Shown here: one piece after another, positions 39,443-57,742 of the stretch
Layout: each line of letters begins with the position of its first letter
How positions within the stretch are numbered: the first letter of the stretch is position 1
Origin: an uncultured Phascolarctobacterium sp.
GTDB lineage: Bacteria; Bacillota; Negativicutes; Acidaminococcales; Acidaminococcaceae
Reading direction: 5' to 3'
NCBI GenBank assembly: GCA_900541915.1
Contig: UQLS01000003.1
Coordinates: forward strand, 104,196 to 168,195
DNA length: 64,000 bases
The notes under the pieces: generated by a model
The model's input: only the letters and a program-made list of their open reading frames with translations
The model's database searches: none
Told to the model about the DNA's origin: nothing
Made by a program: the position numbers and the translations under genes

Positions 39443-39835
39443 ATGAAAATAGCAGTAACCTATGCAGACGGAAATATTTTTCAGCATTTCGGTCATACCG
39501 AGCAATTTAAAGTATATGAAGCAGAAAATGGTCAAATCATCTCCGCGCAGGTCATCAGTACTAACGGCAGCGGTCATGGTGCTTTAGCAGTTCTGCTCTC
39601 TGACCTGCAGGTTGATACGCTGATTTGCGGCGGTATCGGTGCCGGCGCACAAAATGCACTGGCACAGGCTGGCATTAAATTATACGGCGGAGCAGCCGGC
39701 AGCGCCGACGAAGCAGTAGCTGCGCTTTTAGCAGGCAAGCTTGCTTTCAATCCTGACGTACATTGCAGTCACCACGACCATGAGCATGGTGAACACCACT
39801 GCGGTGAACATCATACCTGCGGCGGTCACAATTAA
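39443..39835 (+). CDS. NifB/NifX-family (dinitrogenase FeMo-cofactor-like, DUF134) protein with a His/Cys-rich C-terminal tail
   Basis: MKIAVTYADGNIFQHFGHTEQFKVYE core. Tail HCSHHDHEHGEHHCGEHHTCGGHN. Confidence 0.8.
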   Translation: MKIAVTYADGNIFQHFGHTEQFKVYEAENGQIISAQVISTNGSGHGALAVLLSDLQVDTLICGGIGAGAQNALAQAGIKLYGGAAGSADEAVAALLAGKLAFNPDVHCSHHDHEHGEHHCGEHHTCGGHN

Positions 39836-39838
39836 TTT

Positions 39839-40288
39839 ATGCGGCTTAAAGAAGAACTTAATCGTCCTGATGCTTTGCTGCAGCAGCTGACACATGTTTG
39901 GGAAAGCTCAGTAAGAGCAACACATCTATTTCTGCCGGAATCAGATATTATTGCTATCAAAAAATGTATTCCTCGATACCTATCGGCTGTGCCTATACTA
40001 ATCACCGTATCAGATAACAATAAACATATTGCATTCATGGGTCTACAGGAAAATAATATCGAAATGCTTTTTATTGATGCGAACTACCGAGGTAAAGGTA
40101 TAGGTAAAAGACTTATCAGCTATGCTTTAAATAAATATGCGGCAGATAAAGTAACCGTCAACAAACAAAACCAGCAGGCAATAGGATTTTATGAAAAAAT
40201 GGGTTTCGCAGTTTTCAAGGAAACACCTGTCGACGAACAGGGCAGACCCTATCCACTTCTTTATATGGCTTTACAAAAAAAGACTTAG
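39839..40288 (+). CDS. GNAT-family N-acetyltransferase
   Basis: Acetyl-CoA motif RGKGIGKRLI. Confidence 0.8.
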   Translation: MRLKEELNRPDALLQQLTHVWESSVRATHLFLPESDIIAIKKCIPRYLSAVPILITVSDNNKHIAFMGLQENNIEMLFIDANYRGKGIGKRLISYALNKYAADKVTVNKQNQQAIGFYEKMGFAVFKETPVDEQGRPYPLLYMALQKKT

Positions 40289-40342
40289 GCTAAGTGATAT
40301 GTACCCAGAGTTCTGGACATATTTCTTAACTACACTGAGTAT

Positions 40343-40391
40343 ATGGATGCCATCTTATATTTTAAAGATGGTATCCATTTTGTCTTTTTCT
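40343..40391 (+). terminator. Rho-independent terminator after the GNAT gene; it forms the left edge of repeat copy A
   Basis: ATGGATGCCATCTT...AAGATGGTATCCAT stem followed by TTTTGTCTTTTT. Confidence 0.7.
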
Positions 40392-40855
40392 AAATTCTTT
40401 ATTTGTTGTAATAGTTTATATCTTATACGACTTTCTCAAATTCTTCAGTTAAATAACATTTAACAAATCTTTTTTTGAAATATAATGTCAATTCTTCTGA
40501 TTTCAAAATATTATGTTGATTTTAGAATATACATTGTCTTTAGTAGATATTTTAATTTGTACTCTTTTCTATGAGTTCTTTGACAATTGCTGCTTTTTCT
40601 TCTTGAGTTACACAGCACATTTTTCTTCTCTTTCTTTTATTATGTTAGTGCATTATAACCTTAATATTTATATTTTTGAACTCATTGATATAGCATTTCA
40701 GACTTTATACCGATAGTTAATGTCACTTTTATCATTTTGTCATTGTTATGTCGAAATCTGTTCTGACTAACACCATATGATGTTTCTGTGCTTTTTTCTT
40801 TTGTACATATCAACAAATTTTAATTTGCGCTTATAACTGTAACACACAAAAATAC
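40373..40855. repeat. Direct repeat copy A (483 bp, identical to 42286..42768), AT-rich and non-coding
   Basis: Base-by-base comparison with copy B. Homology extends with mismatches to about 40300..40895. Confidence 0.9.
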
Positions 40856-40888
40856 CCTCTTTACTTGTTTTGTCCAGTAAAGAGGGTA
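40843..40888 (-). terminator. Rho-independent terminator for the minus-strand hypothetical gene
   Basis: Perfect 12-bp stem ACCCTCTTTACT / AGTAAAGAGGGT; the T-run is on the minus strand. Confidence 0.7.
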
Positions 40889-40906
40889 CATATCTTACTA
40901 TAGCAG

Positions 40907-41599
40907 TTACTTTTTTATCTTAGTACCAAATACATAATCCCAAGTTGCTAAATTATTACCACTTTCGCTATGTCTGACTAAAATATTTAATTCTTCAGGA
41001 TTTAATTTAAAGCCACGTGCCCCCATCATTCCTGAGTATGTAGAACCGATATCTTTAACAAAAGCTATTTTATCTTCTTTATGAAGATTAAACCAATGTG
41101 AATTTACTTCAACCAATAAGGTTTTTCCATCATATGTAAGGTTACATGCTTCAAATAATCCTTCATATTTATTTGATAAAACAGAAGCATATGATTCGCC
41201 AATTTCGTTATGTTGTCCTTCTGTTAAATAAAATTTTTGAGATTGAGTTACGTTATTAGCTACTTGTTGTTCTTTTTTCTCTATAATATTGTCTGACTTT
41301 TGTTGATTTTGTTTGTTATCTTTTTGTTCTAATACTGTTTGATTTGTGGTATTTACTCTAATGGATTCATATTTTGTATTAGGAGTAAACGCTGATATCA
41401 TCATCATTATGCCTAATATTATTGTTCCATAATAGTAATATTTCTTTGTATTGTCATATTTCGTTTTTATTGCTTTATATCCTATAAATGCAATTGTAAA
41501 ACCTAATGCAAAGGTTAATGATTTCACTCCTGCAATAATAGCTATAATTAAGCTTATTATAAAGGATTTAATACCATATTGTTTGAATAGATTTATCAT
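40907..41599 (-). CDS. Hypothetical membrane-anchored protein (two N-terminal TM segments plus a C-terminal domain of about 150 aa) on an AT-rich island
   Basis: RBS GAGGTGA 7 nt before ATG at 41599. GC is far below the genome background. I recognise no family. Confidence 0.6.
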   Translation of the reverse strand: MINLFKQYGIKSFIISLIIAIIAGVKSLTFALGFTIAFIGYKAIKTKYDNTKKYYYYGTIILGIMMMISAFTPNTKYESIRVNTTNQTVLEQKDNKQNQQKSDNIIEKKEQQVANNVTQSQKFYLTEGQHNEIGESYASVLSNKYEGLFEACNLTYDGKTLLVEVNSHWFNLHKEDKIAFVKDIGSTYSGMMGARGFKLNPEELNILVRHSESGNNLATWDYVFGTKIKK

Positions 41600-42285
41600 A
41601 TGAAATCACCTCAAATTCATCTTTTTATATTCCGTTTCTATAAAAGTACTGATTTATCTTTTCAAATATAAAATAAAAGGGATATTTTTTATTCTTTCTG
41701 TTATTTTAAGAGATTTATTAAATTGTGTAAATCTTCTTTATGGATTTGATAGCCTAAAATGCTTTCTACTGCGACTCCTATCTAAATTAATCTTTTCGTT
41801 CTATCTTTTCTTTGGGCAAGTTTTTATTTTGCCAAGATATCTTTTTCGTGCTTTTAGTTGCTCTAATCGTTTATCTTTATTCTGCTGTTTTTACATTGTC
41901 CATAATTGGCCTCCGTATCACAGTATTTTTATTATACTATTTATACAGAAATATTGCACAATTTTTTGCATATAAGTATAAAAAAAACAGTAGAAGTAAA
42001 TCCCACGTTTTTATACAAAAGCACATTTACAGACACAAAATTGTGTCCATTTTGCGATCTGTATAGCAGATAAAGAAAAATAAGGTAGCATATTATGGCA
42101 GTTTATAGTTATAATATATCAAATATAAACCGTGGAAAAATCAACTTCCACAACCACACTTGCATATATTCCTGGCAAAAAACAAAAGAGGCAAGACTTT
42201 GTTTGTCTGATATGTACCCATAATTTAGAGTATATTTCTTGACTACATGGAATATGTAGATACCATCCTGTATTTTAAAGATGGC

Positions 42286-42768
42286 ATCCATTTTGTCTTT
42301 TTCTAAATTCTTTATTTGTTGTAATAGTTTATATCTTATACGACTTTCTCAAATTCTTCAGTTAAATAACATTTAACAAATCTTTTTTTGAAATATAATG
42401 TCAATTCTTCTGATTTCAAAATATTATGTTGATTTTAGAATATACATTGTCTTTAGTAGATATTTTAATTTGTACTCTTTTCTATGAGTTCTTTGACAAT
42501 TGCTGCTTTTTCTTCTTGAGTTACACAGCACATTTTTCTTCTCTTTCTTTTATTATGTTAGTGCATTATAACCTTAATATTTATATTTTTGAACTCATTG
42601 ATATAGCATTTCAGACTTTATACCGATAGTTAATGTCACTTTTATCATTTTGTCATTGTTATGTCGAAATCTGTTCTGACTAACACCATATGATGTTTCT
42701 GTGCTTTTTTCTTTTGTACATATCAACAAATTTTAATTTGCGCTTATAACTGTAACACACAAAAATAC
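42286..42768. repeat. Direct repeat copy B (483 bp, identical to 40373..40855)
   Basis: Identical sequence. It encodes the same spurious 67-aa ORF as copy A. Confidence 0.9.
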
Positions 42769-42822
42769 ATTCCTTACTTGTTTTATACAGCAAAGAGAGT
42801 AAATATCACAAAGTATAAGTAT

Positions 42823-43410
42823 TTAAATTGCTTCTATAATCTTCTGCAGTATCTCCACCGTTTCCTCCAAAGGCCGCGCCATGCTTTCATCCCAAACCAT
42901 TTCCGGCATTAACGGCACATGAACGAATCCTATCTTCATTTTAGTATTCTGATAATTATGCAGCGAGAGATAAAAAACCTCATTGCAGATATAGGCGCCG
43001 CTGCTGTAGCCAATGGCTACCGGCATTTTTTCCTTGCGCAGCTTCTTCACCAGCGTATGCACATCAAGTGTAGCAAAATAAGCAGTCGGGCCATCTGTTA
43101 CAATAGGCTCATTCCATGGCTTTTTACCTAAATTATCCTCTATCAGTGCATCTCTCAGATTGATTGCCACAGTATCTAAAATAATATCCGTACTGCCGCT
43201 GTTCATCCCCAGCATTAAAAGACAATCCGGCTGCAGCTGCTCCACTGCGTGGGCAATCTTCTTAAATTCGGAACCGTAGATATTTAAAAGCTGCAGCTTA
43301 TGCAGCTCAAAATCGCCTATCTTATCAGGAATAGACTGTACAGCCTGCCAGGAAGGATTGATTATATATTTGCCAAAAGGGTCAAAGCCTGTTATCAGTA
43401 ATTTACGCAT
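42823..43410 (-). CDS. pcp: Pyrrolidone-carboxylate (pyroglutamyl) peptidase I
   Basis: N-terminus LITGFDPFGKYIINPS. Pcp fold over 195 aa. Confidence 0.85.
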   Translation of the reverse strand: MRKLLITGFDPFGKYIINPSWQAVQSIPDKIGDFELHKLQLLNIYGSEFKKIAHAVEQLQPDCLLMLGMNSGSTDIILDTVAINLRDALIEDNLGKKPWNEPIVTDGPTAYFATLDVHTLVKKLRKEKMPVAIGYSSGAYICNEVFYLSLHNYQNTKMKIGFVHVPLMPEMVWDESMARPLEETVEILQKIIEAI

Positions 43411-43506
43411 TTTTTCTCTGCACCACCTTTAACAGTATAGTATAACTTTAACCTTCAAACAGCAATAAAAAAATCTGTATAATCATAGATTATACAGATT
43501 TTTATT

Positions 43507-44286
43507 TTATTTAATTTTCGTAAACAAAGCTTTGACGTTTTTGGTAGTCTGCTCTGCCAGTTCTTCAAAAGGCACACCCAAGACCTCGGCTGCATTACGC
43601 GCCGTCAGTTCCACATAACCCGGATTATTGCGTTTGCCGCGGTACGGCACCGGCGTCAGATAGGGACTGTCTGTTTCAAATAGCAGCAGCTCTCGGGGAA
43701 TATAGCTCATTACCTCCCGCACCTTCTGGGCATTCTTATAGGTAGAAGTACCGCCAAAGCCAAAATAATAACCGCGTTTAACCAGTTCCTTAGCCATTTC
43801 CAGCGAGCCGGAAAAACAATGGAATACTGCGCGCACGCCGGTTACTTCCTTCTGAAAGATTTCCAGCATATCTCCATGAGCATCACGGTCATGAATAATA
43901 ACTGGCAAATCAAACTGCTTGGCTAAATCTAACTGTTCTAAAAAAATACGCTTCTGTACTTCTTTAGGCTCGTTTTCCTTCCAGTAATAATCAAGTCCAA
44001 TTTCTCCGATAGCTGCAACCTTCGGATGCACCGCCCAGGCTGCCAGCTTATCCAGATAATCGGCAGGTATGCCTTTTAATTCTTCCGGATGCCAGCCCAC
44101 TGCCGCATAAATAAAATCATATTTTTCCGCCAGTTCTACTGCAAAGGCGGAAGTAGCTTCATCACAGCCGGGATTGACAATACCGTCCAAATCCTGCTGC
44201 AGCTTACTGATAAGTTCTTCCCGATCGTCCGTAAAATAATCGGAATCAAGGTGTGCGTGGGAATCCCACAATCCTGTTCTGCTCAT
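43507..44286 (-). CDS. tatD: TatD-family metal-dependent hydrolase/DNase
   Basis: N-terminal DSHAHLD motif; HxH and D residues conserved. Confidence 0.9.
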   Translation of the reverse strand: MSRTGLWDSHAHLDSDYFTDDREELISKLQQDLDGIVNPGCDEATSAFAVELAEKYDFIYAAVGWHPEELKGIPADYLDKLAAWAVHPKVAAIGEIGLDYYWKENEPKEVQKRIFLEQLDLAKQFDLPVIIHDRDAHGDMLEIFQKEVTGVRAVFHCFSGSLEMAKELVKRGYYFGFGGTSTYKNAQKVREVMSYIPRELLLFETDSPYLTPVPYRGKRNNPGYVELTARNAAEVLGVPFEELAEQTTKNVKALFTKIK

Positions 44287-57321: not shown

Positions 57322-57397
57322 GGCCCATTAGCTCAGTTGGTAGAGCACCTGACTCTTAATCAGGGTGTCGTAGGTTCGAGGCCTACATGGGTCACCA
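57322..57397 (+). tRNA. tRNA-Lys (anticodon CTT)
   Basis: Cloverleaf folded by hand. Anticodon loop cTCTTAAt. Encoded CCA. Confidence 0.85.
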
Positions 57398-57402
57398 ATC
57401 AT

Positions 57403-57477
57403 GGCCGGTTGGTCAAGCGGTTAAGACACCGCCCTTTCACGGCGGTATCGGGGGTTCGATTCCCCCACCGGTCACCA
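57403..57477 (+). tRNA. tRNA-Glu (anticodon TTC)
   Basis: Anticodon loop CTTTCAC. T-arm GGGGGTTCGATTCCCCC. Encoded CCA. Confidence 0.85.
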
Positions 57478-57483
57478 TAATAC

Positions 57484-57559
57484 GGGCGCTTAGCTCAGCT
57501 GGGAGAGCGTCTGCCTTACAAGCAGAATGTCAGCGGTTCGATCCCGTTAGCGCCCACCA
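57484..57559 (+). tRNA. tRNA-Val (anticodon TAC)
   Basis: Anticodon loop CTTACAA. Acceptor GGGCGCT/AGCGCCC. Encoded CCA. Confidence 0.85.
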
Positions 57560-57585
57560 CTTTTTCCATGTATCCTCTAAATAAT

Positions 57586-57662
57586 GGCCCGGTGGTTCAG
57601 TTGGTTAGAATGCCGCCCTGTCACGGCGGAGGTCGTGGGTTCGAGTCCCATCCGGGTCGCCA
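57586..57662 (+). tRNA. tRNA-Asp (anticodon GTC)
   Basis: Anticodon loop CTGTCAC. Encoded CCA. Confidence 0.85.
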
Positions 57663-57666
57663 TTAT

Positions 57667-57742
57667 GCCTCGGTAGCTCAGTTGGTAGAGCAAAGGACTG
57701 AAAATCCTTGTGTCCACAGTTCGATTCTGTGCTGAGGCACCA
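57667..57742 (+). tRNA. tRNA-Phe (anticodon GAA)
   Basis: Anticodon loop CTGAAAA. Encoded CCA. Confidence 0.85.

Follow-up and report, generated by a model that had tools for sequence, protein, structure and literature searches.

The island between the GNAT acetyltransferase gene and pcp in the 64-kb window (the whole stretch of DNA analysed, 64,000 nucleotides from an uncultured Phascolarctobacterium) is ordinary mobile-DNA wreckage rather than a new kind of element. It is probably the debris of an IS-bounded capture, made up of two IS3-family insertion sequence relics and the leftover of a mobilizable plasmid, all lodged in the loop of a split terminator. A striking perfect repeat around a lone gene is thereby reduced to familiar processes: insertion of an IS in the hairpin of a terminator, capture of part of a plasmid, conversion between the IS copies, and loss by recombination. 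The features of the locus are as follows.

39839–40288, plus strand: GNAT acetyltransferase gene (Pfam Acetyltransf_10/7/1; 38% GC)
40275–40294, no strand: left arm of the ancestral bidirectional terminator (AAAAAAAGACTTAGGC, then TAAG), intact, overlapping the GNAT stop codon
40295–40895, minus strand: IS3-family relic copy 1 (u1, 601 bp), from blastn to IS3-family elements on plasmids and a phage and alignment to a full-length IS
40373–40855, no strand: perfect-repeat core, copy 1, from self-comparison; variants in contig L004 at 40723 (T>C) and 40753 (G>A)
40907–41599, minus strand: intact cargo gene (230 aa), an open reading frame with homologues P0002–P0004
41644–41903, minus strand: frameshifted DUF3847 pseudogene (stitched translation against PF12958, E 1.5e-6; tblastn with the L029 protein, E 3.5e-15)
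42095–42207, plus strand: 5′ stub of a MobA_MobL relaxase gene (~38 codons, MAVYSYNISNINRGK...), cut by the copy-2 IRR end (tblastn E 5.6e-4)
42208–42808, minus strand: IS3-family relic copy 2 (u2, 601 bp), with the deletion architecture of copy 1
42286–42768, no strand: perfect-repeat core, copy 2, from self-comparison; variants in L004 and L005 at 42377 (C>T), 42383 (delT), 42400 (G>T) and 42451 (C>T)
42809–42824, no strand: degenerate right arm of the split terminator (CAAAGTATAAGTATTT against ancestral TACGCCTAAGTCTTTTT, from comparison with the empty sites L018, L024 and L025), abutting the pcp stop codon
42823–43410, minus strand: pcp (pyroglutamyl peptidase, Peptidase_C15; Pfam E 3e-47), the right chromosomal flank

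Self-comparison of the window showed the two cores to be identical at 483 of 483 positions at an offset of 1913 bp. Homology continues past both core edges, as a first-pass annotation of this DNA had noted (61 of 78 positions identical on the left, 31 of 39 on the right), giving a full unit of 601 bp, and the low-GC, foreign character that it ascribed to the insert is equally apparent (27% GC for the island against 43% for the window). The unit occurs twice in the 64-kb window, and scans of GTDB representative genomes, JGI metagenomes and IMG/VR returned no other location of either the relic core or the IS-passenger-IS unit, which counts against the earlier idea of a multicopy element.

Judged by homology, the repeat is the interior of two dead, internally deleted copies of an IS3-family element of ~1466 bp, with the transposase sense on the minus strand. 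Full-length relatives are found in Finegoldia magna pFMC, a Flavonifractor plautii plasmid, prophage Javan118 and a metagenomic contig (L012); the relics share with them terminal inverted repeats that begin TGA...CCC and end ..TCA, 73–92% DNA identity at the ends, and the order of an IRL hairpin carrying the ribosome-binding site and orfA start, then orfA (HTH) and orfB (rve). Both copies keep their terminal inverted repeats, have lost the DDE core and have every reading frame broken. Alignment to the full-length IS (L012:8476–9941) places the core deletion at IS positions ~803–1310, with positions ~1–131, 204–251, 316–365, 533–695 and 1311–1466 kept in copy 1, and the transposase survives as fragments of orfA (residues 80–108, tblastn E 2e-5) and orfB (residues 228–263, E 9e-6). 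Since orfA and orfB are both present in the relatives and neither is intact in the window, these are relics and not functional members of the family, from which they differ in length (601 against ~1466 bp), in the missing DDE core, in further deletions and in having neither an intact frame nor a target duplication. The statement in the first-pass annotation that no transposase is present thus has to be revised, the repeat itself being a dead transposase gene, and what it described as hairpin terminators are the terminal hairpins of the IS, including the IRL with its ribosome-binding site and orfA start. No full-length IS is present in the window.

That the 0.5-kb unit is instead a functional multicopy non-coding element under selection, for example a regulatory RNA or recombination site, is extremely improbable. 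Between-strain divergence is indeed 0.4–0.6% in the core against 2.5–7% in the flanks, and copy 1 has strong end hairpins, yet the orfA/orfB homology is clear and is riddled with deletions and stop codons, and two copies in the window with none in three public collections do not describe a multicopy element. An Rfam search of the island gave no match, and a structured RNA there was rejected on that basis. Terminal inverted repeats give copy 1 one attribute of a MITE; against such a classification stand a copy number of two in 64 kb, with none elsewhere, and the lack of duplications.

The ends of the two copies are in different states. Copy 1 has its IRR end at 40295 (TGATATGTACCC..CTGGACA) and its IRL end at 40895, both of which align with the termini of L001, L002, L003 and L012 and form intact hairpins (−21.9 and −20.5 kcal/mol), whereas the copy-2 versions are degenerate, with broken hairpins (−8.4 and −9.7 kcal/mol), changes at positions invariant among the relatives (CTGGACA to TAGAGTA or CTGTATA) and a ribosome-binding site altered from GGAGGG to GGAATG. 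The left hairpin of copy 2 is a mosaic: its 5′ arm is of the ancestral type seen in L012 and L003 (CCATCCTGTA) and its 3′ arm of the copy-1 type (AAAGATGG). This boundary supports gene conversion between the copies, which had been put forward earlier as an alternative. Conversion between copies with ends 78–79% identical needs interiors that were more similar at the outset, which counts against this account.

GNAT and pcp converge, and the island (40295–42808) occupies the loop of the terminator that separates them; the terminator's left arm is supplied by the last GNAT codons. Empty sites (L018, L024, L025 and L021) read AAAAGACTTAGGC-TAC/AGA-GCCTAAGTCTTTTT and fold into a hairpin of −18.5 kcal/mol (z −6.6). 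The ancestral intergenic region is thus a ~30-bp terminator (L018, L024, L025), and the repeat, a decayed IS3-family IS, was not copied from the GNAT-pcp intergenic region as had been proposed. For the IS relatives in L001 and L003, reconstruction of the empty sites likewise gives terminator-like hairpins; the relatives show a tendency towards hairpin apices. Insertion into palindromes and the loops of palindromic units has been described for IS1397 and ISKpn1 of the IS3 family (PMC1525189), and insertion at the apex of an intergenic hairpin is common to those elements and to the present case; here, however, the target is a rho-independent terminator rather than a REP or PU repeat, and the preference is drawn from 3 of 5 sites only. 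The relatives are flanked by target duplications of 3–4 bp (ATA in L001, AAG in L002, CTTG in L003). None was found for either relic or for the whole island in the four end pairings tried (flanks AAG/TAC, GTC/CAA and AAG/CAA), and with no target duplication visible, transposition into the terminator site is putative. Homology past the left IS end was considered for an AAGACTT motif lying 8 nt outside both copies; it was rejected as coincidence, or at most target preference, because the copy-2 instance sits in a stretch of relaxase coding sequence shared by L029, which carries no IS there. The u1 IRL hairpin probably terminates the cargo gene, and the intact copy-1 end hairpins may now act as terminators for both GNAT and cargo; their exaptation to replace the terminator destroyed by the IS is a secondary possibility.

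The 1312 bp between the relics (40896–42207) form a colinear piece of a MobA/MobL-DUF3847 mobilizable element, containing the relaxase stub, an intergenic region, the DUF3847 pseudogene and the intact cargo gene. DUF3847 is a small relaxase-associated protein of mobilizable elements, and the pseudogene has 73–76% nucleotide identity to intact genes in L028–L033. Positions 41904–42094 are the counterpart of the divergent mobA/DUF3847 intergenic region, and a single 553-bp alignment at 75.8% identity joins 42208–41682 of the window to L029:4755–5302. The relaxase assignment comes from the Pfam MobA_MobL match of a 520-aa neighbour, and the order MobA_MobL (reverse), DUF3847, cargo in L029 and L030 is that of the passenger. 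The ~630 bp previously taken as non-coding therefore include the 5′ portion of a relaxase gene as well as a DUF3847 gene with a frameshift. Modules of this kind in mobilizable elements of Bacillota likewise have relaxase and DUF3847 in divergent orientation, with a variable cargo gene after them (L029–L033), but in the window the relaxase is cut at about codon 38, DUF3847 is frameshifted and the cargo alone is intact, making this only a fragment. Its ends fall at about mobA codon 39 and 10 nt beyond the stop codon of the cargo gene, two points that do not adjoin in the native element, so the insert is a linear, colinear fragment and not the self-contained circular element assumed before. A circularly permuted passenger, in which the copy-2 flank would be the cargo's own terminator, was also tried: the alignment to the L028 tail was not significant (69 of 500 shuffles), and the permutation is refuted by that flank being relaxase coding sequence colinear with L029.

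The 483-bp direct repeat exists in the window as first described, but there is reason to doubt that its two copies are perfectly identical. On the two flanks, contigs assembled by MEGAHIT from run ERR1018193 (L007 and L026) agree with the window at 100% for 6.8 kb and 6.0 kb; nevertheless, independent assemblies, including one from a run with contigs that match the window exactly, carry six core-to-core differences, four in the left part of copy 2 (in L004 and in L005, a contig from a second assembly) and two in the right part of copy 1 (in L004 only). The L004 end at 40597 lies exactly k−1 = 126 nt from the variant at 40723, and for the contig ends at 40661 and 42574 the distance to the nearest variant is 123 nt. 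True core identity is probably ~98.8%, perfect identity having most likely arisen when the window's assembler collapsed the bubbles, and we caution that such collapse can create perfect repeats in metagenome-assembled genomes. In a short-read graph, an integrated island with two copies looks no different from a single copy accompanied by a 1.9-kb circle, or from a tandem array of greater length, and the integrated two-copy structure depends on the window's own assembly. We nonetheless think it improbable that the chromosome holds a single relic and that the 1.9-kb unit is a separate circle or tandem array threaded once through the collapsed repeat. The core does exceed typical short-read length, every independent assembly breaks within it (L004–L007 and L026), the ends of L004 overlap by 65 bp in loop fashion, as the graph would give anyway, and the window's core alleles contradict the k=127 linkage in L004. 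On the other hand, all four junctions are found in independent contigs, the collection index has 50–200 kb contigs with the cargo gene, a 1.9-kb circle would have no replication gene, and the variant alleles sort cleanly into two copies, as two integrated copies would.

Comparison with uncultured Phascolarctobacterium from the human gut documents four allelic states of the locus in this population: the two-copy form, a solo relic, an empty site with an intact bidirectional terminator, and a state in which GNAT is missing too. As the first-pass annotation had anticipated, relatives with a single copy occur. The solo relic (L008 and L010) is exactly one unit, matching copy 1 at its left end and copy 2 at its right end base for base; the terminator hairpin is empty and intact in L018, which has GNAT, and in L024, L025 and L021. 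GNAT behaves as an accessory indel, present in L018, L008 and L010 and absent from L020, L021, L024 and L025. The two-copy form occurs in one or two samples and the solo form in at least two, counts that fit a recent insertion as well as a deletion.

The identity of each part, the empty, solo and double alleles and the mosaic boundary are observed, whereas the sequence of events and which way the locus changed are inferred. A plasmid-derived segment lying between two related IS copies would have been taken into the chromosome as a pseudo-compound transposon, or else as an IS-mediated cointegrate that an IS-adjacent deletion then cut back. Gene conversion may then have homogenised the relic interiors while the ends escaped at ~21% divergence, and RecA-type recombination across the near-identical cores would delete the 1913-bp unit and leave a solo hybrid relic. 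The two-copy and solo states thus appear to interconvert by homologous recombination. Change from two copies to one is the direction towards which we lean slightly; the reverse is possible and is put forward tentatively. Both ends of copy 1 are strong and near consensus and both ends of copy 2 are degenerate, which gives the solo allele the look of a recombinant product; such a pairing, intact ends together in one copy and degenerate ends together in the other, if anything favours the two-copy state as the parental one. Polarising insertion against deletion by the core SNP phases was tried and abandoned, the phases being symmetric under both models.

A Campbell-type origin, as originally proposed, would run the other way: a solo hybrid relic in the terminator, joined through its core by a circular plasmid-derived molecule with a relic beside the cargo, would gain 1913 bp, the rest of the plasmid having been lost beforehand or later by IS-adjacent deletion. 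We consider this reading rather unlikely. The direct-repeat layout and the single-copy relatives speak for it, the solo alleles having exactly the expected ends and occurring in more samples than the double; the SNP phases fit a crossover within 40754–40855, in either direction; the cargo protein is extremely rare; and the passenger comes from a mobilizable, presumably circular, element. A one-copy allele with the outer ends of the two-copy allele (L008, L010) is, however, equally predicted by deletion. Campbell integration also demands that the chromosomal and plasmid relics each be a complementary chimera with one intact and one degenerate end, and such chimeras are most simply the product of an earlier exchange between copies 1 and 2. 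The non-adjacent passenger ends mean that a simple Campbell event needs an additional deletion, a 1.9-kb circle would be without replication functions, and plasmid, phage, GTDB, JGI and IMG/VR searches returned no donor molecule with one repeat plus the insert.

The preferred reading, IS-bounded capture followed by exchange between the copies, has parallels in several known arrangements. Like IS-mediated plasmid integration and excision (Campbell-type, as in Hfr formation), it places a plasmid segment between chromosomal direct IS repeats, with a solo-IS allele in relatives and a crossover inside the shared core; it differs in that only 1.3 kb of plasmid is left, the fragment ends are natively non-contiguous and the event can be polarised both ways. 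Compound and pseudo-compound transposons and MITE-flanked units similarly have two direct IS-derived copies bracketing a passenger gene, with one IRR and one IRL as outer ends and a solo copy left by recombination between the two. Unlike compound transposons, the island has no flanking target duplication (outer AAG and CAA), shows no sign of movement as a whole unit, has no visible transposase source and includes one copy with degenerate ends.

The gene annotated at 40907–41599 proved to be real and intact. It is preceded by a GAGGTG ribosome-binding site, and its product has three TM-like helices predicted at the N terminus, followed by a low-complexity linker and, at the C terminus, a conserved alpha/beta domain of ~105 aa that is presumably extracytoplasmic. 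Nucleotide identity to the gene after DUF3847 in L028, L029 and L030 is 87.8%, and a dN/dS of 0.15–0.26 suggests that purifying selection keeps the gene while the remainder decays. In L012 a homologous cargo gene is followed, a few nucleotides past its stop codon, by a full-length IS of the relic's family, an arrangement that we count as support for the linkage between IS and cargo being old. According to the collection index, the protein itself occurs only in the IS-passenger-IS arrangement. A Pfam search gave only a sub-threshold DUF6095 match over the TM region and PHROGs only weak matches; Foldseek of an AF2 model (mean pLDDT 61) against the PDB returned nothing below E 0.08, its matches being generic alpha/beta folds such as RbfA and ring-building motifs. 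The wider family comprises 73 clusters among 1.84 billion representatives, has a variable membrane anchor and a conserved domain that matches nothing in Pfam or the PDB, and its members sit directly after DUF3847 in relaxase-DUF3847 (MobA_MobL) modules; this protein family travelling with MobA/DUF3847 modules is the only part of the island of possible wider interest. It is a rather doubtful proposition that the cargo is a domesticated plasmid determinant of a new, very small family, perhaps with a role in entry or surface exclusion or in phage defence, although such a role would explain why the cargo alone is intact while the relaxase, DUF3847 and both IS copies decay.

The island between the GNAT acetyltransferase and pcp genes is a pair of IS relics around a plasmid fragment, and it is polymorphic in the population. 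The direct repeat described in the first-pass annotation is present in the window sequence, where 40373-40855 recurs without a mismatch at 42286-42768 (483 bp, offset 1913 bp); gapless homology extends beyond this core to 40295-40895 and 42208-42808 (61/78 positions identical on the left, 31/39 on the right). No further unit-like sequence was found in the 64-kb window besides the two copies. The GC content of the island is 27%, compared to 43% for the window.

Searching plasmids and phages with blastn matched the unit to annotated IS3-family elements. Their full-length relatives of ~1466 bp (Finegoldia magna pFMC, a Flavonifractor plautii plasmid, Streptococcus prophage Javan118 and L012, a 1-Mb metagenomic contig from another gut genome) encode orfA (HTH_Tnp_1) and orfB (rve), corresponding to the minus strand of the window. 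Both IS ends, with the terminal inverted repeats TGATATGTACCC...CTGGACA, and scattered internal blocks are kept in the window unit, while ~800 bp in total are missing, including the entire DDE core (IS positions ~803-1310); traces of orfA and orfB persist at the protein level (tblastn E 2e-5 to 7e-7). The feature at 40856-40890, earlier annotated as a hairpin terminator, is the IRL hairpin, which in active relatives is followed directly by the RBS and orfA start (GGAGGGTATTTTTATG); the orfA start codon in the window has changed to GTG.

Features of the island
40295-40895, copy 1 of the IS relic
40896-42207, passenger
40907-41599, minus strand, cargo gene, intact
42095-42207, relaxase stub of ~38 codons, truncated at the IRR end of copy 2
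42208-42808, copy 2 of the IS relic

Read in gene sense, the 1312-bp passenger is colinear with contigs L029 and L030, in which a MobA_MobL relaxase gene and a divergently oriented DUF3847 gene occur together with a small cargo gene. Window positions 42208->41682 align with the first ~39 relaxase codons, the intergenic region and DUF3847 (553 bp, 75.8%), and 41233->40907 with the C-terminal half of the cargo gene (87.8%); DUF3847 is frameshifted (Pfam E 1.5e-6 on the stitched translation, tblastn E 3.5e-15). Together, the relaxase stub, the frameshifted DUF3847 and this colinearity make the passenger a scrap of a mobilizable element, neither non-coding nor a circle complete in itself.

The perfect identity of the 483-bp core stands in the window sequence, but independent contigs hold six core differences, and the identity appears to be an assembler consensus. 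Against MEGAHIT contigs from run ERR1018193, the window shows 100% identity for 6.8 kb (L007) and 6.0 kb (L026), and all of these contigs end within the core. The passenger contig L004 differs from the window at four positions in the left part of copy 2, shared with L005 from another assembly, and at two further positions in copy 1's right part. Independent contigs (L004, L005, L007, L026) sort six variant sites into two distinct copies. The distance between the L004 end at 40597 and the variant at 40723 is exactly k-1 (126 nt), and the ends at 40661 and 42574 lie 123 nt from their respective variants. The two right-part alleles of L004 are those of the solo alleles in loci L008 and L010, and the window's copy 1 alleles contradict the 127-mer linkage of L004. 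On the simplest reading of these sequences, the window's assembler would have popped bubbles and written one consensus into both copies, in which case true core identity would be ~98.8%. A solo relic with a separate 1.9-kb circle would also fit the same assembly graph, as would an array of more than one unit; a circle of this kind, having no replication gene, is unlikely to persist. More generally, perfect repeats in MAG contigs may be assembler consensus. Variant sites in the cores span 40464-40753 and 42377-42666.

Among the window, from an uncultured human gut Phascolarctobacterium, and its relatives, we found four states of the locus.

States of the locus
State i (L020, L021, L024, L025): nifB-like gene, terminator and pcp, without GNAT
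State ii (L018): GNAT, intact bidirectional terminator AAAAAAAGACTTAGGC-TAC-GCCTAAGTCTTTTT, pcp
State iii (L008, L010): GNAT, one 601-bp relic, pcp
State iv (window): two relics plus passenger

The state ii terminator folds at -18.5 kcal/mol, and the relic sits in its loop, with the left arm intact and overlapping the GNAT stop codon and the right arm degenerate. The solo relic of state iii matches copy 1 at its left end and copy 2 at its right end, base for base; states iii and iv are therefore one homologous exchange within the core apart.

GNAT (within 39829-40294) is itself an indel polymorphism, lacking from all four state i loci, even from L024 and L025, whose flanks are 97-99.6% identical to the window. 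In these strains the nifB-like gene has a different, longer C-terminus running straight into the terminator. GNAT has 38% GC, against ~45-50% in its neighbours. The right arm of the split terminator (42809-42824) is heavily changed (substitutions all from GC to AT; 2 nt lost), whereas near-identical strains retain an intact terminator, suggesting that the IS-bearing allele is old and introgressed, or has decayed unusually fast.

As for the direction of change, core SNP phases are symmetric under deletion and insertion. Copy 1 has two near-consensus ends with strong hairpins (-21.9 and -20.5 kcal/mol); in copy 2, both ends are mutated at positions invariant in all relatives and both hairpins are broken (-8.4 and -9.7 kcal/mol). 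If ends are naturally paired within copies, it is the solo allele that arose by recombination, and its parent is the two-copy state or an earlier form of that state. We lean slightly towards deletion, from the two-copy state to the solo relic. The opposite order, a Campbell insertion into a pre-existing solo relic, agrees with the double form being rarer than the solo form in our data, but needs two complementary chimeric elements beforehand, and we regard it as possible though rather doubtful.

The surviving ends of the two copies are only 78-79% identical. In the left-end hairpin of copy 2, the 5' arm (CCATCCTGTA) has the state of L012 and of the related locus L003, and the 3' arm (AAAGATGG) shows the derived copy 1 state, which pairs only with copy 1's own 5' arm. 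The loop of this hairpin is thus a mosaic boundary, and one copy has apparently had its interior overwritten by the other, which supports the gene conversion raised as an alternative in the first-pass annotation.

Reconstructed empty sites of relatives in L001 (1501-2966) and L003 (2501-3967) also form strong terminator-like hairpins (-17 and -22 kcal/mol vs shuffle means of ~-7 and -10). With the window site (40275-40294 with 42809-42824), they suggest that this IS3 subgroup, repeatedly located at the apex of hairpins resembling rho-independent terminators, prefers such apices; within the IS3 family, IS1397 and ISKpn1 are documented to target palindromes (PMC1525189). The heptamer AAGACTT (40281-40287, 42194-42200) occurs at both copies, exactly 8 nt beyond the IRR end, in unrelated flanks (GNAT stop and terminator arm vs relaxase coding sequence), and may reflect coincidence or target preference.

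Every feature of the island falls within known IS biology, of which it is a new instance only; the remaining curiosity is the uncharacterised cargo protein. This protein is very rare: among 5.8 billion proteins, only the protein itself and three relatives were found, and when 1.84 billion representatives were searched with a profile, 73 clusters passed E <= 1e-3. The relatives have in common a C-terminal domain of ~105 aa, attached to differing anchors: three helices in the cargo protein (P0001) and P0003, one signal-like helix in P0002 and P0004, and a TM2 domain in P0127. The cargo gene is under purifying selection (C-terminal domain dN/dS 0.15 vs L029, 0.26 vs L012). Pfam and PHROGs gave no usable assignment, the AlphaFold model is modest (mean pLDDT 61; C-terminal domain 65-84), and Foldseek against the PDB returned nothing below E 0.08. 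A role in exclusion or defence is a guess from gene context.

In L012, a full-length IS of the relics' family lies 19 nt past the stop codon of a cargo homologue and shortly before the terminator that, in the IS-free L028, comes directly after the cargo gene; this IS family and the cargo gene therefore have an old or recurrent association. This part of L012 (5843-9941) is a small island flanked by a glycerol-3-phosphate dehydrogenase-like operon and by gyrA; besides the 152-aa cargo homologue and the IS, it encodes an HTH_3 regulator and proteins of 187 and 200 aa. P0003, a full-length homologue (41% identical), lies on contig L011 (1-11552) in a mobile-looking context with a resolvase, a HaeIII-type restriction-modification pair, HTH regulators and a UvrD-like helicase.

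Elsewhere in the window, five tRNA genes cluster at 57322-57739 (plus strand). An AT-rich 21-nt inverted repeat at 43464-43508 (90% complementary, 3-nt spacer), between pcp and a TatD-like gene, is conserved in relatives and is probably the intergenic terminator of these genes.
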